From assembly GCF_056746865.1 (NCBI RefSeq), contig NZ_CM163382.1: 64,000 bases of DNA. One strand, 5' to 3'. Below the pieces are notes generated by a model. It worked only from the letters and a program-made list of their open reading frames with translations. It was not told the origin of the DNA and ran no database searches. Shown here piece by piece: positions 13,568 through 49,484 of this stretch; position 1 is the first letter of the stretch, and each line of letters starts with the position of its first letter. Made by a program: the position numbers and the translations under genes.

Positions 13568-13767
13568 AACGTGTTGTAATGCCGGTACGCTGGCAATGTG
13601 CAAAATACCAGCGTTGGTATTGTGGAAATCAGCCCTGTCCCTGGTGCTGGCGACCTGCTGCCCCCGTCTGTCATTCCTCGTTCTTCGCTGTAACAGGCAT
13701 CGTACCGGTCTCGGCGTGCTTTCCTGCGTACCGACACCGGTTCAGCAACATTCAAGGGGATCAAATC

Positions 13768-14304
13768 GTGCAAATAACCGAAACCGTACTTTCAGAGCCG
13801 GTGGAAATCCGGCGTTTTATTCAGCAGGCGGTGGATCACTGGCCGCGTCTGCTGGCCGTCCACTTCACACTCCATTCGGCAGAAGGAAACATCAACGGAC
13901 AACAGATTCATGCATTCTGTACTTCCTTTTATGAACGTATTACTGAGCGTAATCACACGACCAGTCCATCATCGCCGGTGGTATTACGCTGGTTGCGGGA
14001 ACAACATGGAGGAGCAACAATGCGATGCCTGTTGCTGCTCAGCCAGACGAGTATTTGTCACCCGCGAGCCAGTGTCACAGTTGATGAACAATGTTCGCAA
14101 GTGGTGGATTTACTGCAGCAGACCTGGCGGGGGATGGATACGGGCGGACAATGTCGGGTGGAAAGGTGTTTTCAGGCTGCCCGGGGTGATACATCCGGCC
14201 AGTATATTGCGTTAAAAACAGTTGCATTGTCTCTGGGGTTACCGGTTGTGACCGGTATTACCCATCGCCCGGTACAGCGCTGTACATTGATTACAGCTCA
14301 GTGA
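13768..14304 (+). CDS. Hypothetical protein (GTG start) downstream of alpA; a degenerate paralog lies at 42410-43010
   Basis: RBS agggga plus GTG conserved in both copies, while the upstream DNA differs by indels (so the longer 13522 ORF is unlikely to be the real start). Confidence 0.45.
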   Translation: MQITETVLSEPVEIRRFIQQAVDHWPRLLAVHFTLHSAEGNINGQQIHAFCTSFYERITERNHTTSPSSPVVLRWLREQHGGATMRCLLLLSQTSICHPRASVTVDEQCSQVVDLLQQTWRGMDTGGQCRVERCFQAARGDTSGQYIALKTVALSLGLPVVTGITHRPVQRCTLITAQ

Positions 14305-16130: not shown

Positions 16131-16394
16131 TTCATGGAGTTTGTTTACCATTCTGTTTTTCTTAAAAGTGAGTGTCTGTGCGGTCACTAAACTCGGTAAT
16201 AAAGCAGTTCATTGCAGGATAAGAAGCGTTTGGTTGTGTCGTTTTACCGTAAGAACCGACCGCCGTATGTATCCATTAAGCCAGTATTGGTAACGTAGGT
16301 GCCCACCTTTTCAAACTGGTGGGCGCCTGTTATGGAGCAAAAACATTATCCGCAGAACCCCGCAGATCATTTTCAAATGAGTTAAACTTCAAAT

Positions 16395-17329: not shown

Positions 17330-18871
17330 ATGCTTAAAAGACGTGATGCTTTTTTAAAGAAAAGCGCGCTGGCAGTGAGTGTGGCCCTGCTGCTCTCGGC
17401 TCAGGCTCAGGCTGTTTTGACAGGGCCTGTTGATGGTAATTCTTCCAGCTTACTGATTGGAGAAAACTCTTTTATTACGAATTTAACTGGTACAGTTAAT
17501 AACACTTTCCTTTTGGGAGGTGGCGCTTTTAACCTGGATTCACCAGGAAGTCTTCAGTTTGGCTCTTTTTCGGAAGTGTATAATTCTCCACACAGTGTCA
17601 CCCTGGGAAGGGATGCCGGTCAGGCTGAGTCAAAATATGGTGTTGCCATAGGTAAGAGCGCTGAGGTATTTAATTCACAGCATAGTGTTGCTATTGGGGG
17701 ATGGGCTGGAATAGAAAATTCTTCAGGCTCTGTAGCTCTGGGCCATGGCTCACAGGTGTCGGGAGAAAATAACGTGGTATCTGTTGGTGCCGGGCCTGAG
17801 GGATATGGAAAGAGTGTCAAAGGAGCACCGGAAACCCGCCGGATTATAAATGTGTCTGATGGTATCAATAACACAGATGCAGCGACGGTAGGGCAACTGA
17901 ATGAACGATTTGATGATGCACAGGTCTTTTTGTTGCAGACGAATGAAAGAATTGACGAGACAGATAAACGTCTTTCAACAGTTCATGCTGAACTCAGCAG
18001 GGATATTATTGCAGGCACATCGGCAGCGGTGACGTATACAGATGTAACAGCGCTTGCACTTCAGGATGAGATAAAGGATGGGACGAACAAAGTACGTGAT
18101 GAGTTGAAATCACAGGGAGACAGTCTGCGTGGTGAGATAGGCGGTGTATACAGAGATGCCCGTGCTCATACTGACAGTCAGGTCACAGCAGTACGTGATG
18201 AACTGAAGGCAGAGGGAGACAGTCTGCGCGGTGAGATAGGCGGTGTATACAGAGATGCCCGTGCTCATACTGACAGTCAGGTCACAGCAGTACGTGATGA
18301 ACTCAGCAGGGATATTATTGCAGGCACATCGGCAGCGGTGGCGTATACGGATGCATCTTCTCTTGCTCTTCAGGATGAAATAAAAGAAAAAGCGGATGAA
18401 ACAGTTCAGGTTTCCCGGGCTTATACAGATAAAAGTGTACGGGATGCCCGTAAAGAAGCGAAAAGCCAGGCAGAACATCTCAGCGATGTGCTTGTGAAGA
18501 ACAGGGCGCAGACGGATGCAGCAATAGCCTCAAATACAGCAGCGATAAGGAATAACAGTCATCGTCTGGATTTGACGGAAGCCTGGCAGAAGATGGCGAC
18601 AGAGAGAATGAATAATATGCAGGAGCAGATTAAAGAGAACCGGAAGGAGTTAAGGGAGAGTGCAGCCCAGAGCGCGGCACTGGCCGGTCTTTTCCAGCCA
18701 TACAGTGTTGGAAAATTTAACGCGACAGCAGCCGTTGGTGGTTACCGTGATGAGCAGGCCATTGCGGTGGGCGTGGGCTACCGTTTCACAGAGAATGTGG
18801 CAGGAAAAGTTGCAGTTGCTGCAGGTGGGTCATCCGCATCGTGGAATGCTGGTGTGAATTTTGAGTTCTGA
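17330..18871 (+). CDS. Trimeric autotransporter adhesin, YadA-like (possibly Eib/Saa-like), 513 aa
   Basis: Signal peptide ([28 protein letters not shown]), head repeats (GVAIG, SVAIGG, SVALGH), neck motif [11 protein letters not shown], coiled-coil stalk with repeats, C-terminal anchor ending NAGVNFEF. Confidence 0.8.
18092..18289 (+). repeat. Two near-identical 99-bp tandem repeats within the adhesin stalk (33-aa units), plus a third partial unit
   Basis: Units start at 18092 and 18191 and differ at only a few positions; a further roughly 45-bp direct repeat at 17984-18036 and 18296-18348. Confidence 0.85.
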
Positions 18872-18892: not shown

Positions 18893-20265
18893 GTCCCGGG
18901 GGGAGTCCCCATAAGCGCTAACTTAAGGGTTGTGGTATTACGCCTGATATGATTTAACGTGCCGATGAATTACTCTCACGATAACTGGTCAGCAATTCTG
19001 GCCCATATTGGTAAGCCCGAAGAACTGGATACTTCGGCACGTAATGCCGGGGCTCTAACCCGCCGCCGCGAAATTCGTGATGCTGCAACTCTGCTACGTC
19101 TGGGGCTGGCTTACGGCCCCGGGGGGATGTCATTACGTGAAGTCACTGCATGGGCTCAGCTCCATGACGTTGCAACATTATCTGACGTGGCTCTCCTGAA
19201 GCGGCTGCGGAATGCCGCCGACTGGTTTGGCATACTTGCCGCACAAACACTTGCTGTACGCGCCGCAGTTACGGGTTGTACAAGCGGAAAGAGATTGCGT
19301 CTTGTCGATGGAACAGCAATCAGTGCGCCCGGGGGCGGCAGCGCTGAATGGCGACTACATATGGGATATGATCCTCATACCTGTCAGTTCACTGATTTTG
19401 AGCTAACCGACAGCAGAGACGCTGAACGGCTGGACCGATTTGCGCAAACGGCAGACGAGATACGCATTGCTGACCGGGGATTCGGTTCGCGTCCCGAATG
19501 TATCCGCTCACTTGCTTTTGGAGAAGCTGATTATATCGTCCGGGTTCACTGGCGAGGATTGCGCTGGTTAACTGCAGAAGGAATGCGCTTTGACATGATG
19601 GGTTTTCTGCGCGGGCTGGATTGCGGTAAGAACGGTGAAACCACTGTAATGATAGGCAATTCAGGTAATAAAAAAGCCGGAGCTCCTTTTCCGGCACGTC
19701 TCATTGCCGTATCACTTCCTCCCGAAAAAGCATTAATCAGTAAAACCCGACTGCTCAGCGAGAATCGTCGAAAAGGACGAGTAGTTCAGGCGGAAACGCT
19801 GGAAGCAGCGGGCCATGTGCTATTGCTAACATCATTACCGGAAGATGAATATTCAGCAGAGCAAGTGGCTGATTGTTACCGTCTGCGATGGCAAATTGAA
19901 CTGGCTTTTAAGCGGCTCAAAAGTTTGCTGCACCTGGATGCTTTGCGTGCAAAGGAACCTGAACTCGCGAAAGCGTGGATATTTGCTAATCTACTCGCCG
20001 CATTTTTAATTGACGACATAATCCAGCCATCGCTGGATTTCCCCCCCAGAAGTGCCGGATCCGAAAAGAAGAACTAACTCGTTGTGGAGAATAACAAAAA
20101 TGGTCATCTGGAGCTTACAGGTGGCCATTCGTGGGACAGTATCCCTGACAGCCTACAAAACGCAATTGAAGAACGCGAGGCATCGTCTTAACGAGGCACC
20201 GAGGCGTCGCATTCTTCAGATGGTTCAACCCTTAAGTTAGCGCTTATGGGGGAGTCCCCCGGGAT
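18893..20265 (+). mobile_element. IS4-family insertion sequence with about 38-bp terminal inverted repeats
   Basis: IRL cccggggggagtccccataagcgctaacttaagggttg (18893-) and IRR caacccttaagttagcgcttatgggggagtcccccggg (-20265); transposase ORF 18959-20077 has the IS4 YREK signature (Y-RL-R-WQI-E-LAFKRL-K). Confidence 0.7.
18959..20077 (+). CDS. IS4-family DDE transposase
   Basis: 372-aa ORF, YREK motif, bounded by the element IRs. Confidence 0.7.
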   Translation: MPMNYSHDNWSAILAHIGKPEELDTSARNAGALTRRREIRDAATLLRLGLAYGPGGMSLREVTAWAQLHDVATLSDVALLKRLRNAADWFGILAAQTLAVRAAVTGCTSGKRLRLVDGTAISAPGGGSAEWRLHMGYDPHTCQFTDFELTDSRDAERLDRFAQTADEIRIADRGFGSRPECIRSLAFGEADYIVRVHWRGLRWLTAEGMRFDMMGFLRGLDCGKNGETTVMIGNSGNKKAGAPFPARLIAVSLPPEKALISKTRLLSENRRKGRVVQAETLEAAGHVLLLTSLPEDEYSAEQVADCYRLRWQIELAFKRLKSLLHLDALRAKEPELAKAWIFANLLAAFLIDDIIQPSLDFPPRSAGSEKKN

Positions 20266-20737: not shown

Positions 20738-21011
20738 TGTATCTTATATTGTGATATCGGTGCTGCTGCTGTTATTTTTTGTTGTATTTGTGACGAATGG
20801 TTAAGAATAAAACATGAGTTGGTGATTATCAGGACAGGTTGCTTGTATATGAAGATAACAAAGGCGGCATTTATTTTTGCGCTGTCAGTGTGGAGTGTTG
20901 CTGTGATATGTCTTTTATTATTTGTACTGGTTGTTCTGGGATAGCCATAGTGAAATAAAAAGCTGTCTGAATTAAATTATTTTGAACACATATTTTAATT
21001 CTGCACTAAAT

Positions 21012-22329
21012 TCAGAATGACCCTGTAAATAATTCTGTGTAACTGCCGCCGTATTAAAGGTGCTCGCTAAGGCGGTCACCGAACTCGATAATAAAACGGC
21101 TCATTGCCAGCCGCCAGTTCTGGATTGGCATACTCCATTTTTTGACGCCGACTGTATCGCCAGATAAATCACTTTTCGCACCGAGTCGTCCGTTGGGAAC
21201 ACCTTGCGCTTCTTTATCGCCTGCCGAATGACACTGTTCAGCGATTCGATGGCATTCGTCGTGTAGATGGCCTTGCGGATATCCGGTGGGTAACCGAAGA
21301 AGGTGTTGAGATTTTCCCAGTGTGTGCGCCAGCTCTTGCTGATTTGCGGGTATTTTTCATCCCAGACGCCTGCAAACTTATCCAACGCCATCAACGCCGT
21401 TTCCTCTGTCGGGGCCTGATATACCGCTTTCAGCCCGCTGGTGACGGCTTTGTAATCCTTCCACGACACGAATTTCAGGCTGTTGCGCACCATATGGATG
21501 ATGCAGAGCTGAATATGCGTCTGCGGGTACACGCTATTTATCGCTTCCGGGAAGCCTTTCAGGCCGTCCACGAAGGCGATAAGGATATCGTTCAGGCCGC
21601 GATTTTTCAGTTCCGTCAGTACATTCAGCCAGAACTTTGCACCTTCATTTTCGGCCAGCCACATATCCAGCAGCTCTTTCTGACCGTCGGTATTGATGCC
21701 CAGCGCGAGGAACACCGCTTTGTTAATGACACTCCCGCTGTGACGAACCTTAACCACAATACAGTCAAGATAAACAATGGGATACAGTGCATCCAACGGT
21801 CGGTTTTGCCATTCAGAGACCTGTTCTTTAACCGCATCGGTCACTTTGGATATCAGCGTGGGCGAGACATCGGCGTCGTACATTTCTTTGAAGGCTGAGG
21901 TAATTTCGCGGGTAGTCATCCCTCTGGCATACAGCGCCAGGATCTGGTTGTCCATGCCGGTAATGCGGGTCTGATTTTTCTTCACCAGTTGTGGTTCGAA
22001 GGTATTTTCACGGTCACGCGGCGTGTTAAGTTCGATCTCGCCATCATCGCACAATACCGTTTTTGACGAGTAGCCATTACGGGTATTAGAGCCTGATTTA
22101 GGAGCATTTTTCTCATGACCTAGATGGTCAGTCAGTTCTGCATTGAGCGCCGTTTCGACGGTAAGCTTTGTCAACATGCGTGAAAACTGGTTGAGGTCGG
22201 CTTCGGTTTTAAGGCCTTTGGCCAGTTCAGCCGCAAGGACTTTAAGTTTCTTTTCGTCCATCGTTTGCCTGTCTCCGTTGTTGGAGTGAACATATCAAAA
22301 ACAGGCAATTACACAATTTTAATTACAGT
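21012..22329 (-). mobile_element. IS256-family insertion sequence with imperfect terminal IRs and 9-bp target duplication (ttcagaatg)
   Basis: IRs ACCCTGTAAATAATTCTGTGTAACTGCC (left) and reverse complement of GGCAATTACACAATTTTAATTACAGTCTC (right); flanks recreate a sequence found uninterrupted at 46537-46690. Confidence 0.65.
21047..22261 (-). pseudogene. IS256-family (mutator-type) transposase, frameshifted near its 3' end
   Basis: Protein is IS256-like throughout; the expected C-terminus (SKKWSMPIQNWRLAMSRFIIEFGDRL...) is readable in another frame after a poly-A tract at about 21140. Confidence 0.65.
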
Positions 22330-22469
22330 CTCTTCAGAATGGGTAATCAGTGACCGTCCTGACGGTCACTTTAAAGAAAATGCATATTACACAGAATGGT
22401 AAACAGGCTCAACATAGAGCTTGAAGGTAGTTGTTGCCTTGTAATAAAATGTGTGATTCATAGACATCG

Positions 22470-23058
22470 TTTCAATTTTCTCAGTTCAAGTTCAGGCTTG
22501 TAATTCTGTTCCTGTATATGCTCTTCATTGGGCTGATAGTTTGCATGAACGGCATCGGAGTATGGTGTTTTCTCAGCAAGTTCAAAGTAGCGTTCCATCG
22601 GAGTTTTACCGTTGTGAGCGCTATGAGGACGTTCCCTGTTATAGTAATGCTACCATTCTGCTAGCAATCCCTTCAGGTCATCAGCAGAAAGATCTACGGT
22701 AGCGTAAAACTCAGCTTTGTCTGTCTTTTGGGAACGTCCAACCTTTATTACATCAGGCGACAACTACCTTGAAAAACGCCGTTACTCACCGATCCCCTTC
22801 ACGGTAATACGCACTATTGCCAGTGAGATTGAATGAAGTCGTTTTAACTCGCTTTGAATACGTCTTGCACCCAGATTTCGCTGAGAACGTAACTTCCAGA
22901 ATCAGAGCGACTTCGCAAGTGCTGGTTTTCGTTGATGGTGAACGCTTGGAGCGACGGCTGTAGCTTTCCAGACCAGCGATGCCCTGAGCCAGATATCTGC
23001 GCCACCATTTACACAATGTGGGCCGAGAAGTGCCACAGTGACGGCATACAAATGTCAA
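22470..23058 (-). pseudogene. IS481/IS3-like transposase remnant (HTH fragment plus integrase-core C-terminus with in-frame TAG)
   Basis: N-terminal fragment CKWWRRYLAQGIAGLESYSRRSKRSP and C-terminal fragment HYYNRERPHSAHNGKTPMERY separated by stops. Confidence 0.4.
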
Positions 23059-23101
23059 CGACGGATGAAAAGTGGCTCTTACGCAACCTGGATGGAGATT
23101 T

Positions 23102-24119
23102 TCATGCCAGTGGACTCATGACCCTCTGCCTGAGTAGTTCAAATCCGGCTCGACCATACATCTGGCCTTTCAGCATTTTTAGTCGATTTACATGACTTTC
23201 GACAACCCCCATTATTCCAGCGACTGCTGATTGCCTCACATATAGCCGCAGCATCAGCTGCCATCCTTGCAGCCACGCGCCGAAGTTACCACTTTCTCGT
23301 TGCTCTTTTAACCACTCCCTCCATGGGGCCAGAAGTCCTCGCTCTGGAGGCCGGGTTGACATTTCAGGGAATGTTCCTGAACACACCCAGAGACTGACTG
23401 TCACACGTGATAAGCCTGTAATACGGGATATTTCCCCTGAACCCACATCCCTTGTTATGTAGTGCCATAACCTCTGTCCAACGCTGATGCCGTTTTTGGC
23501 GGGTTTGCTGTTTAAGGCGTTCCGGACGACGGAGCGATGCTACAGGCACAGACAGTACTGGCTTAGGTGATTTCTTTGGTGACAACCCACTGGCAACAAG
23601 ACGTATCAGAGGCATCTGTCTGTACATCATTCGTTCAGGCGCATCGCCAATATTTTTTAGCAGGTGCCATCGATCAGCTATCTGTCTGGCCTGAGGTGCA
23701 CCTTCACGTGCTGCTGTCGCATAGACTCCGCCACGGTCACGTGAGACAACCTGTATTTCCGGATATTTTCTGAACCAGGTCGCCAGCGTACTCTGATCGC
23801 AACCGGGAAGCAGGACGAGGGGACGGTGAGTATCAAGATTGACGATTAACGTGCCGTAATGGTGGCCCCGATGCCACGCCCACTCATCAATACCGACATG
23901 AGGCGCGCCCGACTGTTTCGTCTCCGGGGTATTAATAACCCTGCGAAGAAGAGTATCAGCACTGCAACGTAGCCCCACTGCCGTTGCTGCCTGTTTCCCG
24001 GCCTCACCTCCGGCTATTAATCCCGGTTGACGTTGTAAATTTTGTAACGCCTGTGAATACTGCTGATGTGAACTGTGAAGGGAGGCTGAGACTCGGCAAA
24101 ATTTTTCGTTAACAGGCAA
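23102..24119 (-). pseudogene. DDE transposase remnant, ISL3-like, in two overlapping frames
   Basis: Motifs DRWHLLKNIGDA and VNRLKMLKGQMYGRAGFELLRQRV; frameshift between ORFs 23102-23446 and 23364-24119. Confidence 0.45.
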
Positions 24120-28547: not shown

Positions 28548-30289
28548 TGAATCACAAAGACTGGGATTTGGTCAACCGCCGCTTGGTGGCAAAAATGTTG
28601 TCTGAGCTGGAGTATGAGCAGGTTTTCCACGCGGAATCTCAGGGCGATGACCGCTACTGCATTAACCTGCCGGGAGCACAATGGCGCTTCATCGCTGAAC
28701 GTGGTATCTGGGGCTGGCTCTGGATTGATGCTCAAACTCTGCGCTGCGCGGACGAGCCAGTACTGGCTCAGACGCTGCTGATGCAGCTAAAGCAGGTACT
28801 GTCAATGAGCGATGCAACCGTTGCTGAGCATATGCAGGATTTGTATTCCACGCTGCTGGGCGACCTGCAACTGCTGAAAGCCCGTCGCGGGCTGAGCGCC
28901 AGTGACCTGATTAATCTTAGTGCCGACCGCCTGCAATGCCTGCTGAGCGGTCATCCTAAATTCGTTTTTAATAAAGGTCGCCGTGGCTGGGGTAAAGAGG
29001 CGCTGGAACGATATGCGCCAGAGTATGCCAACACCTTTAGACTGCACTGGCTGGCGGTAAAACGTGAACATATGATCTGGCGCTGTGATAACGAGATGGA
29101 TATTCATCAGTTGTTGACGGCCGCAATGGATCCGCAGGAGTTTGCCCGCTTCAGTCAGGTCTGGCAGGAAAACGGACTGGATCATAACTGGCTGCCGCTG
29201 CCTGTACATCCGTGGCAGTGGCAGCAAAAAATCGCCACCGACTTCATCGCTGATTTTGCCGAAGGCAGGATGGTGTCTCTCGGCGAGTTTGGCGACCAGT
29301 GGCTCGCCCAGCAGTCGCTGCGTACCCTGACCAACGCCAGTCGCCGGGGTGGGCTGGATATCAAGCTGCCGCTGACCATCTACAACACCTCATGCTACCG
29401 GGGGATTCCTGGCAGATACATCGCTGCCGGACCACTGGCTTCACGCTGGCTACAACAGGTTTTTGCGACCGACGCTACCCTGGTGCAAAGCGGTGCAGTG
29501 ATCCTTGGTGAACCGGCTGCAGGCTATGTCTCCCATGAAGGCTATGCCGCGCTTGCCCGGGCTCCCTATCGCTACCAGGAAATGCTTGGTGTTATCTGGC
29601 GGGAGAATCCGTGCCGCTGGCTGAAACCGGATGAAAGTCCGGTTCTGATGGCAACACTGATGGAGTGCGACGAAAACGATCAGCCGCTGGCAGGCGCATA
29701 TATAGACCGCTCCGGGCTGGACGCTGAAACCTGGCTTACGCAACTGTTCCGGGTGGTCGTGGTTCCTCTGTATCACCTGCTTTGCCGCTACGGTGTCGCG
29801 CTTATTGCACATGGACAAAATATAACGCTCGCCATGAAAAAGGGGGTTCCACAGCGTGTTCTGCTGAAAGACTTCCAGGGCGATATGCGGCTGGTGAAAG
29901 AAGAGTTCCCCGAAATGGACTCTTTGCCTCAGGAGGTTCGTGATGTTACATCCCGCCTGAGTGCGGACTACTTAATCCATGATTTGCAGACGGGTCACTT
30001 CGTGACAGTACTGCGTTTTATTTCGCCACTGATGGTTCGTCTTGGCGTACCTGAACGGCGATTTTATCAACTGCTGGCAGCAGTGTTGAGTGATTACATG
30101 AAAAAACATCCACAAATGTCAGAGCGTTTTGCGCTTTTCTCACTTTTCAGGCCACAAATCATTCGCGTGGTGCTGAACCCGGTAAAACTGACCTGGCCTG
30201 ATCTGGATGGCGGCAGCCGCATGCTGCCGAATTACCTTGAGGATCTGCAAAATCCGCTGTGGCTGGTAACTCAGGAATATGAATCATGA
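28547..30289 (+). CDS. iucC: Aerobactin synthetase IucC
   Basis: 580-aa IucA/IucC-family ORF; overlapping start/stop with neighbours. Confidence 0.9.
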   Translation: MNHKDWDLVNRRLVAKMLSELEYEQVFHAESQGDDRYCINLPGAQWRFIAERGIWGWLWIDAQTLRCADEPVLAQTLLMQLKQVLSMSDATVAEHMQDLYSTLLGDLQLLKARRGLSASDLINLSADRLQCLLSGHPKFVFNKGRRGWGKEALERYAPEYANTFRLHWLAVKREHMIWRCDNEMDIHQLLTAAMDPQEFARFSQVWQENGLDHNWLPLPVHPWQWQQKIATDFIADFAEGRMVSLGEFGDQWLAQQSLRTLTNASRRGGLDIKLPLTIYNTSCYRGIPGRYIAAGPLASRWLQQVFATDATLVQSGAVILGEPAAGYVSHEGYAALARAPYRYQEMLGVIWRENPCRWLKPDESPVLMATLMECDENDQPLAGAYIDRSGLDAETWLTQLFRVVVVPLYHLLCRYGVALIAHGQNITLAMKKGVPQRVLLKDFQGDMRLVKEEFPEMDSLPQEVRDVTSRLSADYLIHDLQTGHFVTVLRFISPLMVRLGVPERRFYQLLAAVLSDYMKKHPQMSERFALFSLFRPQIIRVVLNPVKLTWPDLDGGSRMLPNYLEDLQNPLWLVTQEYES

Positions 30290-31563
30290 AAAAAAGTGTC
30301 GATTTTATTGGTGTAGGGACAGGGCCATTTAATCTCAGCATTGCTGCGTTGTCACATCAGATCGAAGAACTGGACTGTCTCTTCTTTGATGAACATCCTC
30401 ATTTTTCCTGGCATCCGGGTATGCTGGTACCGGATTGTCATATGCAGACCGTCTTTCTGAAAGATCTGGTCAGTGCTGTTGCACCTACAAATCCCTACAG
30501 CTTTGTTAACTATCTGGTGAAGCACAAAAAGTTCTATCGCTTCCTTACAAGCAGACTACGTACAGTATCCCGTGAAGAGTTTTCTGACTACCTCCGCTGG
30601 GCTGCTGAAGATATGAATAACCTGTATTTCAGTCATACCGTTGAAAACATTGATTTCGATAAAAAACGTCGATTGTTTCTGGTGCAAACCAGCCGGGGAG
30701 AATATTTTGCCCACAATATCTGCCTTGGTACAGGAAAACAACCTTATTTACCACCCTGTGTGAAGCATATGACACAATCCTGTTTCCATGCCAGTGAAAT
30801 GAATCTTCGTCGGCCGGACCTTAGTGAAAAACGGGTAACCGTGGTTGGTGGAGGACAGAGTGGTGCAGACCTGTTCCTTAATGCATTACGCGGGGAATGG
30901 GGAGAAGCGGCGGAAATAAACTGGATCTCCCGGCGGAATAATTTTAACGCACTGGATGAGGCTGCTTTTGCTGATGAGTATTTTACACCTGAATATATTT
31001 CAGGCTTCTCCGGACTGGAGGAAGATATTCGCCATCAGTTACTGGATGAGCAGAAAATGACATCGGATGGCATCACTGCCGATTCTTTACTGACCATTTA
31101 TCGTGAGTTGTACCACCGTTTTGAAGTTCTGAGAAAACCAAGAAATATCCGTCTGCTACCCAGCCGCTCGGTAACAACTCTGGAAAGTAGTGGTCCTGGC
31201 TGGAAGTTGCTGATGGAGCATCATCTGGATCAGGGCAGGGAGAGCCTGGAAAGTGATGTGGTGATTTTCGCCACAGGTTACCGTTCTGCGTTGCCACAAA
31301 TACTTCCCTCACTGATGCCGCTGATCACCATGCACGATAAGAACACCTTTAAAGTGCGTGATGACTTCACTCTGGAATGGAGTGGCCCGAAAGAGAACAA
31401 CATCTTCGTGGTCAACGCCAGTATGCAAACCCATGGCATCGCCGAACCTCAGCTCAGCCTGATGGCATGGAGATCTGCACGTATTCTTAATCGTGTAATG
31501 GGACGTGATTTATTCGATCTCAGTATGCCGCCCGCCCTGATTCAGTGGCGCAGCGGCACCTAG
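30286..31563 (+). CDS. iucD: L-lysine N6-monooxygenase IucD
   Basis: 425-aa ORF with N-terminal FAD-binding motif GVGTGPFN. Confidence 0.9.
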   Translation: MKKSVDFIGVGTGPFNLSIAALSHQIEELDCLFFDEHPHFSWHPGMLVPDCHMQTVFLKDLVSAVAPTNPYSFVNYLVKHKKFYRFLTSRLRTVSREEFSDYLRWAAEDMNNLYFSHTVENIDFDKKRRLFLVQTSRGEYFAHNICLGTGKQPYLPPCVKHMTQSCFHASEMNLRRPDLSEKRVTVVGGGQSGADLFLNALRGEWGEAAEINWISRRNNFNALDEAAFADEYFTPEYISGFSGLEEDIRHQLLDEQKMTSDGITADSLLTIYRELYHRFEVLRKPRNIRLLPSRSVTTLESSGPGWKLLMEHHLDQGRESLESDVVIFATGYRSALPQILPSLMPLITMHDKNTFKVRDDFTLEWSGPKENNIFVVNASMQTHGIAEPQLSLMAWRSARILNRVMGRDLFDLSMPPALIQWRSGT

Positions 31564-39982: not shown

Positions 39983-40000
39983 CAAATGGTTATCATTAAT
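39983..40000 (-). promoter_or_regulatory. Fur-box-like sequence upstream of sitA
   Basis: AAATGGTTATCATTAATG has partial match to the Fur consensus; weaker than the iucA box. Confidence 0.4.
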
Positions 40001-40239
40001 GTATTTGTTTGTAAGTGATGAGATGCTCTTCCTCTCCTTCACGACAGCCTTCAATTACGCCATGATGGATAAACTGTAACCATAAAAGGAGAAATGTACT
40101 GAACACATCCTGCCCTGTTAAGAGAGGTGCACTGTGATGGATGAAGGGTAAAATTGTCTGCTGTGGAGCCTCTCAGATTTCCGGCATCATAGTGCCCAAT
40201 ACGGGATGCAAAAGCGCCCTCAGACTGGCGACTCCACAA

Positions 40240-41287
40240 ATGAAATATACACCGGTTGGCGTTGATATCGCAAAGTATCTGATTCAGGTTCACTTCATCA
40301 ATGAGTACACGGGCGAAGTGGTGGACAAGCAGCTACGTAGCAAGGATTTTCTGACGTTCTTCAGCAACCGGGAACCCTGTCTGATAGGTATGGAGGCTTG
40401 TGGAGGCTCCCAACATTGGGCGAGGGAACTGGAAAAAACTGGGACACAAAGTTCGGCTGTTGCAAGCTCGCTTCGTTAAAGCATTCGTCATGGGCAACAA
40501 AAATGATGTGATGGATGCGCGTGCTATCTGGATGGCGGTACAGCAGCCCAGTAAAGATATCGCTGTTAAAACGGAAGAGAAGCAGTCAGTTCTGGTCCTG
40601 CACCGTTCGCGCAGACAACTGGTGAAGTTCAGAACCTCGCATATTAATACCCTTGGCACGCTCCTCGAGTTTGGTGAAATCCTCCACAAAGATTGGACAG
40701 CGATGGACAGAAAGCTACCGACAGCCCTAGAGCGAATGAAGACGAACCTGCCGCCGTATCTCATCACTGTGCTTGAATACCAGTACAACAGACTGAGTGA
40801 GCTGGGCATGCAGATAGATGGCCTTGATAAACAGATTAACAGCGTGGCACGGCAGAGCGAAAACTGTAAGCGCCTAATGGAAATCCCCGGTGTGGGGCCG
40901 TTAATCGCTACGGCGGTGGTCGCCACCATGGGCGAGGCCTCAGCATTTAAATCCGGACGTGAGTTTGACGCTTATGTCTGTCTGGTGCCGAAGCAGACGG
41001 GGTCCGCTGGGAAGGTTCGCATGCTGGGGATAAGCAAACGTGGGGATACCTACCACCGGACATTATTTATCCATGGGGCAAGGGCGGCAGCATTGCTTAC
41101 CAAAGAACCCGGCCCATGGATCACGGAGCTGAAAAAACGGCAGCCGACAGGTGTAATGCCGATCAGTTTAGGAGCAGTTGACCGATCCAGGGTCTGTTTA
41201 AGAATCCTGAAACGCTCACTCGTTTCCGGATTTTTGTGCACAGAAAAACCCCAGCTAGGCTGGGGGCCGGAAAGCTTTCAGCTTTGA
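40240..41287 (+). pseudogene. IS110-family transposase, frameshifted
   Basis: N-terminal MKYTPVGVDIAKY... in ORF 40141-40479 continues in ORF 40400-41287 after a frame change; the C-terminal part is IS110-like. Confidence 0.6.
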
Positions 41288-41376
41288 GCCAGTTATTAAA
41301 ACCCCTTTTGATTTGTTAAAACACCTTGCGGTCTGGCAACTGCAAGTGTCAAACAAGAAATCAAAAGGGGGTCCCA

Positions 41377-41616
41377 ATGGGGAACGAAAAGAGCTTAGCG
41401 CATACCCGATGGAACTGTAAATATCACATAGTTTTTGCGCCAAAATACCGAAGAAAAGTGTTCTACAGAGAGAAGCGTAAAGCAACAGGCAGTATTTTGA
41501 GAAAGCTGTGTGAGTGGAAAAGTGTACGGATTCTTGAAGCTGAGTGCTGTGCAGATCATATCCATATGCTTGTGGAGATCCCGCCCAAAATGAGCGTATC
41601 CGGCTTTATGGGATAG
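41377..41616 (+). pseudogene. tnpA: IS200 TnpA (Y1 HUH transposase) 5' fragment, truncated
   Basis: MGNEKSLAHTRWNCKYHIVFAPKYRR.VFYREKR...ILEAECCADHIHMLVEIPPKMSVS, then abrupt junction with IS256-like sequence. Confidence 0.75.
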
Positions 41617-42347
41617 ACGGCATTAATCGCTTCCGGGAAGCCTTTCAGGCCGTCCACGAAGGCGATAAGGATATCGTTCAGGCCGCGATTTTTCAGTTCC
41701 GTCAGTACATTCAGCCAGAACTTTGCACCTTCATTTTCGGCCAGCCACATATCCAGCAGCTCTTTCTGACCGTCGGTATTGATGCCCAGCGCGAGGAACA
41801 CCGCTTTGTTAATGACACTCCCGCTGTGACGAACCTTAACCACAATACAGTCAAGATAAACAATGGGATACAGTGCATCCAACGGTCGGTTTTGCCATTC
41901 AGAGACCTGTTCTTTAACCGCATCGGTCACTTTGGATATCAGCGTGGGCGAGACATCGGCGTCGTACATTTCTTTGAAGGCTGAGGTAATTTCGCGGGTA
42001 GTCATCCCTCTGGCATACAGCGCCAGGATCTGGTTGTCCATGCCGGTAATGCGGGTCTGATTTTTCTTCACCAGTTGTGGTTCGAAGGAACCATCACGAT
42101 CAGGTGGAGTACGTAATTCCATCGGCCCGTCGGTAGTGGTGACGGTTTTCGTGGAATAGCCATTACGGAAGTTGGTTCCCGATTTGGTCTGATTTTTTTC
42201 ATGTCCCAGATGGTGAGTCAGTTCAGCGTTGAGAGCTGCCTCAACACTTATTTTCTTGAGCAGGCGATCGAACTGACTGAGATCTTCAGGGGTTTTGAGA
42301 TTTTTGGCCAGTTCGTTAGCCAGAGCCTGCAATTGTGTGTCGTCCAT
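41617..42347 (-). pseudogene. Truncated IS256-family transposase copy with a divergent N-terminal 100 aa
   Basis: Identical to the 21047-22261 copy from QLVKKNQTRITGMDNQ onward but divergent before it; 3' end cut at the IS200 junction. Confidence 0.6.
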
Positions 42348-42409
42348 AATTTAGCTTTCATTTGATGTTGAATTGAACAGATCAAAATCAGGCAATTACA
42401 TAAATCTAT

Positions 42410-43010
42410 GTACAGGCTCAATGCCGGCGCTGGTATTGTAGAAATCAATCCTGCCCCTGATGTCGGAGATACTCTCGTTAACCTTCCTGATTGTATCCTC
42501 TGCTCAGTCAATGGGTTGCCAATGGGGGCACCCTTTCCTGACTGATTCGTCATTTCATTCTTATTGTATGTTACTGGCATTACACCAGTGCTGGCATACT
42601 TTCCTGCGTGTCTGCACCGGTTTGACAAAATTCAACAGGGATAAAATAGTGCAGGAAACTGAAGCATTACTTGCAGAGCCGGGAGACATCCGGCGTTTTA
42701 TTCAACAGGCAGTGGATCACTGGCCGCATTTTCTGATTGTCCACTTCACACACAATTCGACAGAAGGAAACATCAACGGACAACAGATTCATGCATTCTG
42801 AACTTCCTTTTATGAACGTATTACTGAACGTAATCACACTGACAGTCCATCCTCGCCGGTGGTATTACGCTGGTTGCGTGAACAACATGAAGGAACAACA
42901 ATACCTGTTGCTGCTCAGCCATGTGGTGGCATGCAGCGGCACTTTAAGCAGCACAGGGCACTTTGAACTGCTCCGGGAATCCTGGAGACTAAACTCCCTG
43001 AGAAAGAGGT
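42410..43010 (+). pseudogene. Degenerate paralog of the alpA-downstream gene (13600-14304), frameshifted
   Basis: DNA and peptide similarity (DIRRFIQQAVDHWP, HFT...TEGNINGQQIHAF, LPFMNVLL, RRWYYAGC) with frame changes. Confidence 0.5.
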
Positions 43011-43267
43011 AAACAGGATGAGTATGATTCACAATTGGGGTAATTTGTTCCATTGCCTCAAATGCTGGCTGTACGCCACAGACTCTGCGTGTCTGGGTTA
43101 GCCAGTATGAGCGGGATACAGGGGCGCTTCACACATAACATTCCTTCTAATTTGCATAATTAATTACACTGATAGTCACATTCAATAACTATCATAAGCT
43201 ATCATCTGGCTGACTGTTATTTCGCAACAGTTATTGAGTAAATCTTTAACCTGTTAACAGAGGGTTT

Positions 43268-43792
43268 ATGAAACGTAAACTTATTGCCTTTGTGATTCTG
43301 GCTACATCATCCTGTGGATATGCAGCCACCAAAGATGTAACAATGAATCTTGTTGATAGTGACGGAAAAGAGCGAAATATTGGTAAAATAACCATCCAGA
43401 AGACACCCTACGGGCTGCTGTTCACCCCTGATCTTCACTCCTTACCCGCCGGCATTCATGGTTTTCATGTACATGAAAACGCAAGTTGTGCTCCTGCCCT
43501 GAAAGATGGAAAAACTGTCGCTGCTTTATCTGCAGGTGGTCACTTTGACCCGGAAAAAACAGGGAAGCATCTCGGTCCATGGTCTCCTGATGGCCACCTA
43601 GGTGATCTCCCTGCGCTTTATGTCACTCATGACGGAAAAGCAACCTACCCGGTGCTTGCGCCAAGACTATCTGAATTAAAGGAGCTCGATGGCCGTTCGC
43701 TAATGCTCCACGCAGGAGGTGATAATCATGATGACCATCCTGAACCTCTAGGTGGCGGTGGTGCAAGAATTGCCTGTGGTATCATCCCATAA
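43268..43792 (+). CDS. sodC: Periplasmic Cu,Zn superoxide dismutase SodC
   Basis: Signal peptide plus Cu/Zn-binding histidine cluster (GFHVHE, GGHFDP) and C-terminal [12 protein letters not shown]. Confidence 0.85.
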
Positions 43793-43920
43793 TCAATCAG
43801 GTAAGGGATATCCTCCCTTACCCTTAATCTTCCCTGGCGGCATGTGCATATCTTTCAGTTACTGTGAGATACCTGTATTACGGTGTCTTTTTAGCTCACA
43901 GAAATATCAGACAGCCCGTT

Positions 43921-44145
43921 TCAGTGTTTTATTACCTTAATCTTTTTACGGCATTCTTCAGCTCTTGCGCATGCTATTTTTTCACCTGTTTCATAACATT
44001 GCTGGCAGCCTAATCCAAATTTCATCGCCATATCATAACCTTCCCGAAAACCTCGGAACCACGCGTTACGAAGGTATTCATCATATTCCCCGTAGTCAAT
44101 AATAACCATTTTATTTTCATGGGATTTTCCGGTATTCTCACTCAT
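43921..44145 (-). CDS. Small hypothetical protein, 74 aa, Cys-containing
   Basis: ATG at 44143-44145 preceded by RBS gaggt; sequence MSENTGKSHENKMVIIDYGEYDEYLRNAWFRGFREGYDMAMKFGLGCQQCYETGEKIACARAEECRKKIKVIKH; no family recognised. Confidence 0.4.
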   Translation of the reverse strand: MSENTGKSHENKMVIIDYGEYDEYLRNAWFRGFREGYDMAMKFGLGCQQCYETGEKIACARAEECRKKIKVIKH

Positions 44146-44959
44146 TTTCGATACCTCAATGCTTACAACAGAAAAGTATACTTTTACGAAGTTCGCCTTT
44201 GCAGGACTATATAAAGTTATCACTGGATGCAAGAGCCGGAAATCATGTATATCAGGATCAACTTTGTAATTCAATAACATATTATCCAGTGAAAAAGTAA
44301 GTATATTTAAGCTGGGGAAGGAGAAGGGGGACTTAATTTGATATTTTCATCAATAATATTATTTTACCTCCTCCATTATTCATTCAGGCCTGGTTCCGGG
44401 CGTAATTCCGATTTCTCTGTTGAAGCGATGCATTTATATTTAAATATTCACCTGTCATTGAATTTTATTTGAAATAGGAGAAAATCTCCTCCTGTACTAC
44501 AGATAACCCGGAATGTTCCTCGAAAGAAAATTCTGGCGCAGAATTCACGCCCGGTTCTGTTCAACATCATGCAGGATAACGATACCGAAACGTTAAACTC
44601 TGGCAATTCTCGTGTTATACACAGGCAGGAGTGATTACTACGGTAAGAATTGCTGAAAAGGGGAGAACACTGAAGGCCTTATTCGCGAAGAATAAAGGAG
44701 ACATTTCATGTAAATTATTATCAGAGATAACCTTCTCCAGGCGCTTTTGTTCGCTTCCTGAATTGCTACCTGATACATATTTACGGGATGCCAGCCTGGT
44801 GACTATAACTCCGAAAAGACCGATTATTGTATTGCGTGCATCCGGCATGTTTACAATGTACGCTGGTATCTAACGGAGTCTGACACAGATGCACGCAGGT
44901 GTATATTTTAACGTAATTATCCGGAAGGAACAGTATATTTTAATGCGGGAGTTGCATGA

Positions 44960-45734
<775 letters not shown>

Positions 45735-45740
45735 CTAGCT

Positions 45741-45777
<37 letters not shown>

Positions 45778-46149
45778 TAATTACACTGTGGGTTGACGCC
45801 GGAAGAATCAGAGAACAGATACCGTTCTTACTGTAAAACGTGGCTAATATTAATTGAGCACTGCAGTGTTCAGAGCACAAAGAAGAAAAAAGATGTGTGC
45901 GAATGCCTGTAATGTGTTAAAAGAATGTTCCGCGTTTCCGGTACGCTTTTCGTAACTAACAATGCAGGGTGACGTAACGCTGGTTGTGCCGGAAACGCGT
46001 CCCTCCCCCTATCTTTCCTGTTTGGATTTGCCCCTATATTTCTGGATTATCCGACAAAACCGGCGTGAAGTATTACTCTCGTCGCCCAGCACCATAAGGA
46101 TAACGCCCATAAAATCATGAAACTTTTCTTCCAGATTGGATACAATCAG

Positions 46150-46482
46150 GCCGTATCCCGTATTACAGGCTTATCACGTGTGACAGTCAGTCTCTGGGTG
46201 TGTTCAGGAACATTCCCTGAAATGTCAACCCGGCCTCCAGAGCGAGGACTTCTGGCCCCATGGAGGGAGTGGTTAAAAGAGCAACGAGAAAGTGGTAACT
46301 TCGGCGCGTGGCTGCAAGGATGGCAGCTGATGCTGCGGCTATATGTGAGGCAATCGGCAGTCGCTGGAATAATGGGGGTTGTCGAAAGTCATGTAAATAG
46401 ACTAAAAATGCTGAAAGGCCAGATGTATGGTCGAGCCGGATTTGAACTACTCAGACAGAGGGTCATGAGTCCACTGGCATGA
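46150..46482 (+). pseudogene. Duplicate of the ISL3-like transposase C-terminal fragment seen at 23102-23446
   Basis: Identical peptide ...SRITGLSRVTVSLWVCSGTFPEMSTRPPERG...VNRLKMLKGQMYGRAGFELLRQRVMSPLA. Confidence 0.5.
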
Positions 46483-46536
46483 AAATCTCCATCCAGGTTG
46501 CGTAAGAGCCACTTTTCATCCGTCGTCGATATCTGG

Positions 46537-46690
46537 GATAGCCATAGTGAAATAAAAAGCTGTCTGAATTAAATTATTTTGCACATATATTTTAATCCTG
46601 CACTGAATTAAGAATGGGTAATCAGTGACTGCTTGGACGGTCACTTTTAAGAGAAGGCATTAACAGAGAATGGTAAACAGGCTCAATATA
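46537..46690 (+). repeat. Uninterrupted copy of the sequence that flanks both sides of the IS256-family element at 21012-22329
   Basis: 46537-46602 matches 20936-21011 and 46603-46690 matches 22330-22420 with few mismatches. Confidence 0.7.
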
Positions 46691-47143
46691 TTATGTTGTT
46701 GGCACTACAGATGAATGATGGGATGATATTTTCCAATCCTTTCCATCCCACTCATAAGCGAAACTATAGCGTGCTGAAACTTGTTTTTTATCTTCAAAAG
46801 TAAACGTGTAATTCCCTGTATCAAGAGCCATATTGCATCCAATGCGAATAGTTCTGAAGTTTATTTCTCCAACAGGTTTTTTTTTCAAAAAATGCTCAAA
46901 ATAGTCAACTCTTTCTGCATCTGTAATCCTAATTTTTTTTGATACTGTGGGCAGTAAGATCGCATCACTTAAATAGTTATCAGCAACCTTCTTGGCATCA
47001 CCTGTTTTTAATGATTCATTCCAGCGATCGAATAACCTTTCAATGTCTTTACTATCTACCCGAATACACTTAACATTATCTACGTCACTTGCCCACGACG
47101 CTCCAGAAAACAGACACAGAATTAAAATATTTATTTTTTTCAT
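46691..47143 (-). CDS. Secreted hypothetical protein, possibly NTF2/SnoaL-like fold; AT-rich gene
   Basis: Signal peptide MKKINILILCLFSGASWA; 150 aa; fold guess is from general sequence character only. Confidence 0.4.
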   Translation of the reverse strand: MKKINILILCLFSGASWASDVDNVKCIRVDSKDIERLFDRWNESLKTGDAKKVADNYLSDAILLPTVSKKIRITDAERVDYFEHFLKKKPVGEINFRTIRIGCNMALDTGNYTFTFEDKKQVSARYSFAYEWDGKDWKISSHHSSVVPTT

Positions 47144-47385
47144 AACTCCTCCTGATCAGCCTGAAACTTTTTTAAAGTTTAATCATATTAATACAGTGCA
47201 ACTATTTGATAGTAAAAACGATGTTCTCTATTTTGTTAATAGATACTTCCTATTGTGTATATATTATGAGATTATTAAGAATAATACTCTCTGGGTCGTA
47301 GAGACAGGGTATAAGTCACAGGCTGGTGTGGTTCGGATGTTCTTGCCCCCTCAATATCAGACTGCTATTGTATCTTAAGTTAACG

Positions 47386-47739
47386 TTATCCGCTGACGTC
47401 GATATTCCCGTGGTGAGAGATAACCTAACGCACTATGCGGATGGTTTTCATTGTAATGCTCGAACGCCTCTGCAAGGTTATGCAATGCCGTTATTACATT
47501 CAGTTTCGGCATGAACGCGATGTAGTCTTCATTCACGTTTTCACGAACCTTTCTGCCATTCTATTGCTCTGAGGGCTACTGACTGCCGTCGTGCAGGGCT
47601 CCAGATTCAACTCTCTGGCGAATTGCCGTGTTTCATGAGCCGTATAAGCCGAACCGTTATCCGTCCGCCACTGGATTGCTCGTTCCGGTCCTTTATCGCC
47701 AAAGCGTTTTTCTATCGCTCCTAACATCACATCCTGCAC
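47386..47739 (-). pseudogene. IS3-family OrfB (integrase core) C-terminal fragment
   Basis: [45 protein letters not shown] and downstream [14 protein letters not shown]. Confidence 0.55.
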
Positions 47740-48503
47740 TGTCGGCTTTATCGTAACCTCCCGTACTGGTCACGGGCAGACTGTTCATCATGTTAAACCC
47801 AGCCGCTGTCAGATCATGCACCGGCCGGATGGCGGGCTGACCTGCCCCGCCGCGCTGCTGCCCGCCAATCCATTTCTTACCTTCCTTCCCGGTGGCCTGA
47901 CGTCCGGCCTCGTCCCCTTTCACCGCATCACCGTCACCGCTGTTCACCACCTTCTTGTACTCTTCCAGCATCGCTGGCCTGCGTCCATTTGCTGCGATCA
48001 GAAAAGTCCATCATCCGTTTTGCCATGTTCTGGCAGTTCAGTTACGCCTTGTCGAAAGCCACATTCGCCTGCAGCACACCGTTGGTGATCATGTCGTACA
48101 GGCCGGGGTTGGCACGCTGTATCACCATCGCCGGCAGACTGGCAGCGGCGCCGGTCGCCCCCTAAATCACATCCCCCATCAGATTTTTAAAGCCGTCGGT
48201 CAATCCGTTAAGATGATTACCCACCGTGGTCTTCAGGTCAAAGTTGCCGCACATCAGATCGCTGCTCCAGCCCAGGTCCATACCCAGCTTCTGCATGTTG
48301 CTGCGCGTGGCCAACTGTGAGATCACCGAGCCGCCACCCAGCGTATAGAACAGTTTGTCGGATACGGCGCCATCCACGGATTTCCCGTAACCGAACGTGC
48401 TGTCATTCAGTTTCGGCAGGGAAAGAAGATCAGCCATCGCCGGAATACTGCAGTACAGCATCACACTCAGTGCCACCATACCTGTTTTCATCTTCATCAT
48501 CAT
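47740..48503 (-). pseudogene. Exported protein of a conjugative-element operon (weak TraH-like guess), interrupted by in-frame TAG at 48159-48161 and truncated by the IS3 fragment
   Basis: Signal peptide MMMKMKTGMVALSVMLYCSIPAMA; reading frame continues past TAG (GATGAAASLPAMVIQRANPGLYDMITNGVLQANVAFDKA); family assignment is weak. Confidence 0.3.
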
Positions 48504-48509
48504 GGTTCC

Positions 48510-48872
48510 TTAAAAATTCGTACTGCCAAGGAATCGCTGCCCGCGCTTTTCGAAGCAGCTGTAAGGCTGCCACAGTGCAAAGGCTGCATTACCGTTCTCC
48601 GCCGCCTGGTGTTCACCATCCGGGAAAACGGCACAGGAACGCGACACTGACGGCGTCAGTCGCTGCCATTTGTGATTGCGGGTGCCGGTGTTTTCCTCCA
48701 CCGCCTCCGGGGGCCAGTAGCCGTCACGTTTCACGCCCTTAACCTCCCTGTAGACATGCGACTCCCCCATCCGCGTGATAATGTCGGCCACCCGCTGAGC
48801 CCCCACCGCCGCGGCCCGGTCATCATCGCTCTGCATCACAAAACCACTCCGGTGATAAACGCTCCCCCACAT
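48510..48872 (-). CDS. Hypothetical protein in the same operon remnant
   Basis: 120-aa ORF between two signal-peptide genes; no family recognised. Confidence 0.3.
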   Translation of the reverse strand: MWGSVYHRSGFVMQSDDDRAAAVGAQRVADIITRMGESHVYREVKGVKRDGYWPPEAVEENTGTRNHKWQRLTPSVSRSCAVFPDGEHQAAENGNAAFALWQPYSCFEKRGQRFLGSTNF

Positions 48873-48953
48873 GTTTTTATCGGCCTAGCTGCCAATCTCG
48901 CGTTTGCCGGGAACCTGTGCCTCTGGATACAGGGATTCAGGTAATCCCGTTCG

Positions 48954-49484
48954 CTAGACGATGCTGTCCAGGGTACTGAGGAAATAGGCCATGGCCGGTG
49001 TCACCGGTGAATCACAGCTGAATCCGGGTACCATCCCGCCGATAAGCTGTGTGGCCGGATGACCCAGCGCATCTGCATATTTGAAACGAATTGCTGAACG
49101 GCGCTTCCCCTGTATTTTCATATCCGCCGGATTTCCCCCGCCGGCACTCAGCCCGGACAGGCCGTCAGTGATGGCATTCTCCGGGCCACCTGCGGTCCGG
49201 CTGACCAGCGACATCTCTTTCCAGGGATTACCACCCGGTGCCGTATAGGTGGAAATAACCACTTCCGGGATGAAATGTGTCACCTTCACGGAAATTCTGA
49301 CCGTACAGCCAGACGCGCTGCAGTAAAGCCAGTAACAAATCCCGCTGACACGCCAGCTGATATAGTCCGGTGCCGCAGTACTGGCGATAATGCTGGCGGT
49401 GTTCAGTGATACAGACGCCAGGGGCAGTGATGCCACACTCAGTAACAGCACGCCGGTACGCAGACGACATTTCAGGGACATCAT
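48954..49484 (-). CDS. Exported hypothetical protein, cysteine-containing, conjugative-element-like
   Basis: Signal peptide; start ATG overlaps the upstream gene stop (ATGA coupling at 49481-49484). Confidence 0.4.
   Translation of the reverse strand: MMSLKCRLRTGVLLLSVASLPLASVSLNTASIIASTAAPDYISWRVSGICYWLYCSASGCTVRISVKVTHFIPEVVISTYTAPGGNPWKEMSLVSRTAGGPENAITDGLSGLSAGGGNPADMKIQGKRRSAIRFKYADALGHPATQLIGGMVPGFSCDSPVTPAMAYFLSTLDSIV

Follow-up and report, generated by a model that had tools for sequence, protein, structure and literature searches.

The window, that is, the whole 64-kb stretch of DNA analysed here, belongs to a virulence island in the E. coli chromosome. This island encodes aerobactin, sit, sodC and iha and is full of insertion sequence (IS) debris. 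The colinear region in strain PK8276 contains a YadA-like adhesin gene, a sigma-factor-like HTH gene, iucABCD-iutA, sitABCD and sodC, together with many IS pseudogenes (IS1, IS3, IS4/IS421, IS110, IS200, IS256, ISL3). Colinearity with the window extends up to ~45.8 kb in PK8276 and holds from ~43.0 kb on in EC6563; no complete E. coli genome was found to be colinear across 40–52 kb. In PK8276, PGAP annotates the counterpart of 21054–22261 as "IS256 family transposase, frameshifted" and that of 41609–42346 as an incomplete IS256 family transposase. A promoter and terminator scan of the region revealed nothing that exceeds the shuffled background. The two IS256-family copies, called copy 1 and copy 2 below, and the features around them are as follows (coordinates of the window, strand where there is one):

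20819/20849–20944: small hydrophobic ORF, the last codons of which overlap the left part of X1
20935–21010: left part of X1 (the occupied insertion site), up to the target; 94% identical to 46532–46607 and directly followed by the right part of X in EC974 and G12
21011–21018: left copy of the target-site duplication, TTCAGAAT
21019–22332, minus strand: copy 1, a 1314-bp ISEc39-type insertion sequence of the IS256 family, assigned by its identity to ISEc39, Pfam and NCBIfam matches and PGAP
21019–21048, minus strand: IRR, the terminal inverted repeat far from the transposase start, GACCCTGTAAATAATTCTGTGTAACTGCC..., matching the other end at 22 of 30 positions
21101–22261, minus strand: transposase ORF as now read, 386 aa, of which 374 are in frame with the ISEc39 transposase and the following 12 are out of frame
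21138–21143, minus strand: T6 run (A6 on the coding strand), which is T7 in all three ISEc39 references
22303–22332, minus strand: IRL, the terminal inverted repeat near the transposase start; reverse complement GAGACTGTAATTAAAATTGTGTAATTGCC...
22333–22340: right copy of the target-site duplication, TTCAGAAT
22347–22410, plus strand: right-end relic left by an older IS256-family element resembling IS1414, with hairpin GTGACCGTC..GACGGTCAC and terminus ...ACAGGCTC
41377–41615, plus strand: IS200-family tnpA fragment, first 79 codons (Pfam Y1_Tnp, NCBIfam IS200)
41616–42419, minus strand: copy 2, a truncated IS256-family element comprising IRL and the first ~244 codons, with a B-type backbone and an A-type core at 41754–41961 (lineages A and B are defined below)
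46532–46684: X2, the uninterrupted paralogue of the insertion site, with the unoccupied target TTAAGAAT at 46608–46615 and an IS1414-like relic at 46622–46684

Both copies match the Pfam family PF00872 (Transposase_mut), copy 1 with E 3.4e-114 over profile positions 12–373 of 379 and copy 2 with E 5.4e-74. The NCBIfam model NF033543, "IS256 family transposase" (cut-off 150), is matched with 418 bits (E 2e-125) and 255 bits, respectively. Copy 1 has the size and layout of the family, a single long transposase ORF nearly filling its 1314 bp. Its left junction reads aaaTTCAGAATG/ACCCTGTAAAT... and its right junction ...ATTACAGTCTC/TTCAGAATGggtaatc. The inverted repeats are imperfect and both ends are intact. 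The motif TGTAAA occurs at 21024–21029 and TGTAAT at the opposite end; a subterminal TGTAAA motif has been described for the IS256 family (PMC7780238). The first-pass annotation had recognised an IS256-family element here, and the Pfam and NCBIfam matches, the inverted repeats and the direct repeats confirm this.

Three NCBI-annotated copies of ISEc39 (L007, LF82 and 13P477T) were taken as the reference, as a proxy for the ISfinder sequence. Copy 1 is 96% identical to them overall and 98.8–99.1% identical at the nucleotide level outside two patches, inside which the identity is only 84% and 72%. ISEc39, as seen in LF82 and on plasmid pRHB09-C15_2, shares with copy 1 the length of 1314 bp, the inverted repeats and G as the first base, as well as one ~402-codon Mutator-type transposase gene and an 8-bp A/T-rich target duplication. 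Unlike ISEc39, copy 1 contains the two patches (~76 and ~100 bp) of another lineage and a frameshift 28 codons before the transposase end. A literature search turned up ISEc39 only in brief mentions within genome surveys.

The transposase ORF of copy 1 starts at 22261 on the minus strand and ends at 21101, or at 21054 in the frameshifted PGAP annotation. Residues 1–374 align without gaps to the intact ISEc39 transposase. At codon 374, a 1-nt deletion in the homopolymer (the T6 run) shifts the frame, so that 12 unrelated residues stand in place of the final 28 of the 402-aa protein. Because its transposase lacks these residues, copy 1 is probably non-autonomous, though it retains intact inverted repeats at both ends. 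Some full-length transposase could still be made through slippage on the A-run.

IS1414, another member of the IS256 family, is a carrier of astA/EAST1 (McVeigh et al. 2000, PMC12585946), and its decay is frequent in E. coli (PMC12585946). The window copies belong to the same family and have the same architecture as IS1414, and copy 2 is 83% identical to it. However, neither copy is IS1414, and copy 2 is truncated about where astA would begin. An embedded astA/EAST1 gene as in IS1414 was also considered for copy 1 and rejected, since the astA-like frame (21436–21525) is degenerate, with a stop codon inside.

Copy 1 is flanked by the direct repeats TTCAGAAT(G) at 21011–21018/9 and 22333–22340/1. 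Target-site duplications in the IS256 family are 8 bp long, sometimes 9. Here, 8 bp (TTCAGAAT) and 9 bp (TTCAGAATG) both fit, as a G follows the target and the IS may also begin with G. ISEc39 in L007 (plasmid pRHB09-C15_2) reads AACTGGCG/G ACCCTG...GTCTC/AACTGGCG/T, and ISEc39 in LF82 reads TTTTATTG/G ACCCTG...GTCTC/TTTTATTG/T, which is an 8-bp duplication in both cases. Because these two independent copies have G as the first IS base, the duplication of copy 1 is most likely 8 bp long, which would place the element at 21019–22332 (1314 bp). The repeat had been noticed before as a duplication of 9 bp; the repeat itself stands, while that length is disfavoured by the 8 bp and terminal G of L007 and LF82. 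Duplications of 8 bp that are A/T-rich have been reported for the family (PMC7780238).

The target of copy 1 lies in a ~154-bp intergenic sequence, X, located downstream of the sigma-factor-like HTH gene. In a self-BLAST of the window, 20935–21019 matches 46532–46616 (94%, E 2e-30) and 22333–22416 matches 46608–46690 (86%, E 1e-17). Both matches include the target, where they overlap, so the flanks form one continuous stretch at 46532–46690. With the IS and one repeat removed, X1 is 90.3% identical to X2 over 154/153 bp. The flank similarity is therefore not confined to the IS termini; it lies outside the inserted IS and reconstitutes the unoccupied site. An orthologous empty site is present in EC974 and G12, in the context of the YadA-like gene, the HTH gene, X and mliC (the c-type lysozyme inhibitor gene). 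In both strains X is uninterrupted and contains a single TTCAGAAT; X1 is 96.7% identical to X of EC974 and 93.5% identical to X of G12. The EC974 and G12 loci are the real empty site, whereas X2 in the window is a 90%-identical paralogue at another locus. The first-pass claim of an insertion into a sequence found uninterrupted elsewhere is thus borne out by X2 and more strongly by the orthologous sites. As for the in-window empty-site reference that it had proposed, the flanks are indeed continuous there, but the locus is not the same. The locus provides a clean worked example of how an IS insertion can be checked against empty sites, here both in the window and in other strains.

The right part of X is itself derived from an IS. 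Compared with intact IS1414 (L002), the relics at 22347–22410 and 46622–46684 are 84% identical to its right end (E 1e-12 and 2e-11, respectively), and the similarity to the IS end exceeds z = 20 against shuffles. They correspond to the final ~64 bp of an IS1414-like element, with the hairpin in the transposase C-terminal codons and the terminal repeat ...ACAGGCTC. Copy 1 inserted 6 bp away from the inner edge of this much older relic, and the two are in opposite orientation. When X2 was used in a sensitive search, full-length X turned up in two contexts only, the HTH/mliC locus and a site beside an SgcJ/EcaC-family gene, along with thousands of ~81–85% matches to the right-hand third under IS256/IS1414 transposase annotations. 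The left ~90–95 bp of X show no significant similarity to the left or right IS ends on either strand (z<3). The idea that X is a MITE-like miniature derived from IS256 and retaining two ends was rejected: only the right 64 bp are IS-like, the left part is without detectable IS ancestry, and X occurs in two contexts, not many.

A second family member lies beside the same relic in another strain. At the paralogous site, NRZ14408 carries an intact IS1414, with the duplication TGTTGTTG, which lies outside the relic at a distance of 14 bp. Two independent members of the family, the ISEc39-type element (6 bp inside) and IS1414 (14 bp outside), have inserted within ~15 bp of the same 64-bp relic. It is known that IS30 and IS21 favour their own ends as targets. 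That relic ends of the IS256 family may likewise be preferred landing sites for related elements seems improbable to us, because two landings in an A/T-rich, IS-ridden island are well within chance and too few to establish a target preference.

The outer end of copy 2 is intact at 42419 (...GTACAGGCTC). At 41615/41616 the copy is joined to codon 79 of the IS200-family tnpA. The junction is internal to both elements, with no IS terminus on either side, and only TA is shared. Neither the rest of copy 2 nor the rest of the IS200 element was found elsewhere in the window, and an inversion that separated the halves was rejected for this reason. The simplest reading of the truncation is an illegitimate deletion with 2-bp (TA) microhomology. 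A truncated second copy had been reported at 41617–42415. Its truncation is confirmed, and its bounds are corrected to 41616–42419, with fusion to the IS200 fragment.

Both copies were aligned with ISEc39 (lineage A), with the chromosomal elements L005 (strain 730V1) and L006 (NCTC11476) of a second lineage (B) and with IS1414. Two more A references and one more B-like reference (L013) were added; the three A and the three B-like references agree. The A and B lineages are 66–75% identical in most segments. The B-type lineage, which is unnamed, has ~66–75% identity to ISEc39 and 80–85% identity to IS1414. In coordinates of copy 1, the parentage of the two copies is as follows:

21019–21539: A in copy 1; in copy 2, B at 21530–21539 and absent left of the truncation
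21540–22002 (41626–42088 in copy 2), minus strand: shared identical tract of 463 bp, composed of a B-type patch, an A-type core and a B-type patch
21578–21653 (minimal), minus strand: patch P1, B in both copies; breakpoints in 21540–21577 and 21654–21667
21668–21875: core, A in both copies
21893–21992 (minimal), minus strand: patch P2, B in both copies; breakpoints in 21876–21892 and 21993–22002
22003 to the transposase-proximal end (22332 in copy 1, 42419 in copy 2): A in copy 1, B in copy 2

The divergence between the two copies is not uniform. They are 100% identical over the 463 bp and diverge on both sides, with 64% identity in the 5′ part of the transposase gene. In copy 1, P1 has 84.2% identity to the three ISEc39 references vs. 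98.7–100% to the B-type references, and P2 has 72% identity to the ISEc39 references vs. 99% to the B-type L005 and L013. The core at 21668–21875 is 99% identical to A and 75% identical to B, and in copy 2, too, it is 99% identical to ISEc39. In the 5′ part (22003–22332), copy 1 is 99% identical to A and copy 2 is ~97% identical to B (96.7% to L005). All four breakpoints fall between lineage-informative sites, in blocks without A/B-informative differences. Site 21894, at the start of P2, is in the A state.

Both copies are mosaic: copy 1 is ISEc39 carrying two B patches, and in copy 2 an A core is set in a B-type element. The first-pass annotation had described copy 2 as chimeric, with a divergent first 100 codons and identity thereafter, and had suggested recombination between two related IS256-family elements. 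The recombination is upheld by reference elements of both lineages, but copy 1 is mosaic as well. The divergence of the first codons is also real; it covers ~86 codons, and the identity that follows does not run on unbroken but stops at 21530–21539. This return of copy 2 to the B type comprises only 3–4 informative sites before the truncation.

Formation of mosaic ISs by gene conversion between diverged copies is known for enterobacterial IS1, IS3, IS30 and others. As in those cases, sharp tracts of ~100% identity occur here in elements that are 66–75% identical, and the breakpoints lie in non-informative blocks. The tracts are discrete, as expected of gene conversion: the switches between parents are sharp, both parental lineages are identified, and copy 1 is in the B state at 43 of its 329 informative sites, with a longest run of 27, a length reached in none of 100000 permutations. 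Unlike the known mosaic ISs, both partners are found inside one 64-kb window and each has a tract from the other, and the likely donor–recipient pair can therefore be named.

The distribution of the two copies in the population was also determined. A 2.9-kb query around copy 1 found matches covering at least 80% of it in 62 complete E. coli genomes, and the 25 best of these 62 are 99.6–100% identical. The copy-1 mosaic at an identity of at least 99% occurs in 68 records only, which is about the number carrying this island insertion (62–68). Ordinary ISEc39, present in 213 records, is 92–93.5% identical over the same segment. When a synthetic unpatched copy 1 in its native flanks was searched against 5426 complete E. 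coli genomes, the 30 best full-length matches were all 96.7% identical and patched, and none came near 100%. A synthetic pure-B copy 2 recovered only the mosaic from the same 5426 genomes; 57 genomes had a near-full-length match, and the 30 best were all 94.2% identical. The unconverted ancestral state was found at neither locus in this set. Both mosaics are fixed across the ~57–68 sequenced carrier genomes. Since all carriers have the mosaics and no intermediate is seen, the exchanges predate the spread of this form of the island. A few copy-1 carriers (e.g., 2020N21-246) have a single matching place in the record, which means that some present-day carriers lack copy 2.

Taken as a whole, the data show the insertion of an ISEc39-type element beside the relic, its empty sites, its frameshift and two mosaic copies that are fixed in the carriers; it is quite probable that the mosaics arose by ectopic gene conversion between the resident copies. 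The element transposed into the A/T-rich target TTCAGAAT, most likely 8 bp long. Judging by family membership, the route may have been copy-out/paste-in via a circular intermediate; such a pathway, with a double-stranded circle, is known for IS256 and ISCth4 (PMC7780238). Copy 1 later lost one base of the A7 run. Copy 2, of the separate B-type lineage, was presumably truncated by the illegitimate deletion that fused it to the IS200 fragment. The resident copies share the same orientation at a distance of 20 kb and would have exchanged sequence by ectopic homologous recombination (gene conversion). In the first conversion, the A-type core of ~210–240 bp would have been copied from copy 1 into the B-type copy 2. 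In the second, the 463-bp tract (the core and flanking B sequence), centred on the homology that the copies had just come to share, would have been copied from copy 2 back into copy 1. This two-conversion order requires the fewest events and is the most parsimonious. The alternative order would take three events, namely the transfer of two separate B patches into copy 1 and a subsequent conversion of copy 2. The population data cannot decide between these orders, because no carrier with an intermediate has been seen. With an A/B identity of only ~66–75%, RecA-dependent exchange would need to start in short conserved blocks.

The mosaics could also have been made elsewhere, with copy 1 recombinant before it landed, copy 2 decayed from a related recombinant pool and the 463-bp identity being shared ancestry. 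We regard this as unlikely. It agrees with the lack of an unpatched intermediate at either locus among the 5426 complete genomes, B-like lineages with P1 and P2 at 99–100% are widespread (L005, L006, L013), and mosaic ISs are common in enterobacteria. However, the number of records with the copy-1 mosaic is close to that of the island carriers, and no independent insertions of it were seen. Within the 463 bp that are 100% identical, copies 1 and 2 have in common two private core substitutions, 21739T and 21803G, that are absent from the three ISEc39 references, which ties the core of copy 2 to the lineage of copy 1. Moreover, both copies lie 20 kb apart within one island.

A simpler version, in which copy 1 is pure and copy 2 alone is a one-crossover hybrid with a second IS256-family element, would explain why copy 2 equals copy 1 for 463 bp and is then of the other lineage for its first 86 codons. 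It appears very unlikely, since the departures of copy 1 from the three ISEc39 references are confined to two patches (84% and 72%) that are 99–100% B-type, and copy 2 is B-type again at 21530–21539, to the left of the identical tract. The shared tract is itself a B/A/B mosaic, and one crossover therefore cannot yield it. IS copies are classic sites of assembly error, but the chance that the identical tract or the insertion results from misassembly with collapsed repeated IS reads is negligible, as the same junctions and mosaics are found full-length in 57–68 E. coli genomes finished independently in different laboratories.

In the favoured reading, that of gene conversion between resident copies, a 463-bp tract has become homogenised between two diverged copies of the IS256 family within a single pathogenicity island. 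The case is one of ordinary IS decay and homogenisation within well-described categories, among them nested or adjacent IS insertions in pathogenicity islands; it represents no new system and is already annotated in dozens of public genomes. Only two points are mildly unusual, namely the presence of both conversion partners in one window and the second family member beside the same relic. The case matters little beyond bookkeeping, where it calls for caution when ISs are typed, or reads mapped or assembled, in the aerobactin/sit islands that extraintestinal E. coli carry. That the island is rearranged differently between strains is explained by its IS debris, including the ISL3 inverted repeats and copy 1, which is frameshifted but has intact ends.

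In its arrangement, the window looks like a recombinant of two island forms. The match of PK8276-type islands to the window ends at ~45.8 kb, and that of EC6563-type islands starts at ~42.96 kb and continues onward. Over window 40000-52000, colinearity was seen in none of 5426 complete E. coli genomes. The aerobactin-sit-sodC segment (~23 kb) is flanked on both sides by ISL3-family transposase fragments, two in all, which are inverted relative to each other and 99.2% identical:

23058-23430, ISL3-family transposase fragment
46154-46526, ISL3-family transposase fragment, inverted relative to the first

This pair could be a substrate for inversion. Just 5 bp lie between one of the fragments and X2, the uninterrupted paralogue of X1, the intergenic sequence split by the ISEc39-type element (copy 1). 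A direct repeat of 360 bp (84% identity) joins a hypothetical gene (13728-14276) to its decayed counterpart immediately downstream of copy 2, the truncated IS256-family element:

13689-14045, first unit of the direct repeat
42569-42921, second unit of the direct repeat

In other strains, the X2 locus itself carries an intact IS1414, inserted 14 bp past the end of the IS1414-like relic. The example in strain NRZ14408 has an 8-bp duplication, TGTTGTTG, and interrupts the final codons of an SgcJ/EcaC-family gene:

NZ_CP158426.1 2581-3896, IS1414 insertion, corresponding to window ~46699

It is a second IS256-family insertion adjoining the same relic. A further IS1414-like right-end relic of ~59 bp (80% identical) is located at 16157-16215 on the minus strand, with an annotated fragment of a transposase and a transketolase pseudogene close by. 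At 21436-21525 (minus strand), copy 1 retains a degenerate counterpart of astA, the EAST1 enterotoxin frame, with 67% identity across 30 residues and a stop codon breaking the frame; in the intact IS1414 reference, the embedded astA is intact and encodes 38 aa.

The stretch from the sigma-like HTH gene to X1 contains a very hydrophobic small ORF:

20819-20944, plus strand, small hydrophobic ORF

Its product, read from 20849, is MKITKAAFIFALSVWSVAVICLLLFVLVVLG. The ORF is conserved in EC974 and G12, strains with an empty X1 site, and the X1/X2 homology begins within its final codons, which supply 10 bp. Between the HTH gene and the YadA-like adhesin gene there is a frameshifted copy of the IS4-family element IS421, absent from EC974 and G12, with 40-bp inverted repeats (92.5% identity) at its edges:

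18894-18932, inverted repeat at one edge of IS421
20226-20264, inverted repeat at the other edge

The YadA-like gene varies in size by strain: PK8276, which is colinear with the window here, has 1542 nt, EC974 1359 nt and G12 1260 nt. It contains tandem repeats of ~100 bp (17976-18384), 87-95% identical.

The iucD reading frame of the aerobactin operon stops short of 31619, the PGAP gene end in the colinear strain, where the gene is annotated as frameshifted:

30286-31563, plus strand, iucD ORF, 425 codons

The operon's iucD may be damaged at its C-terminus.
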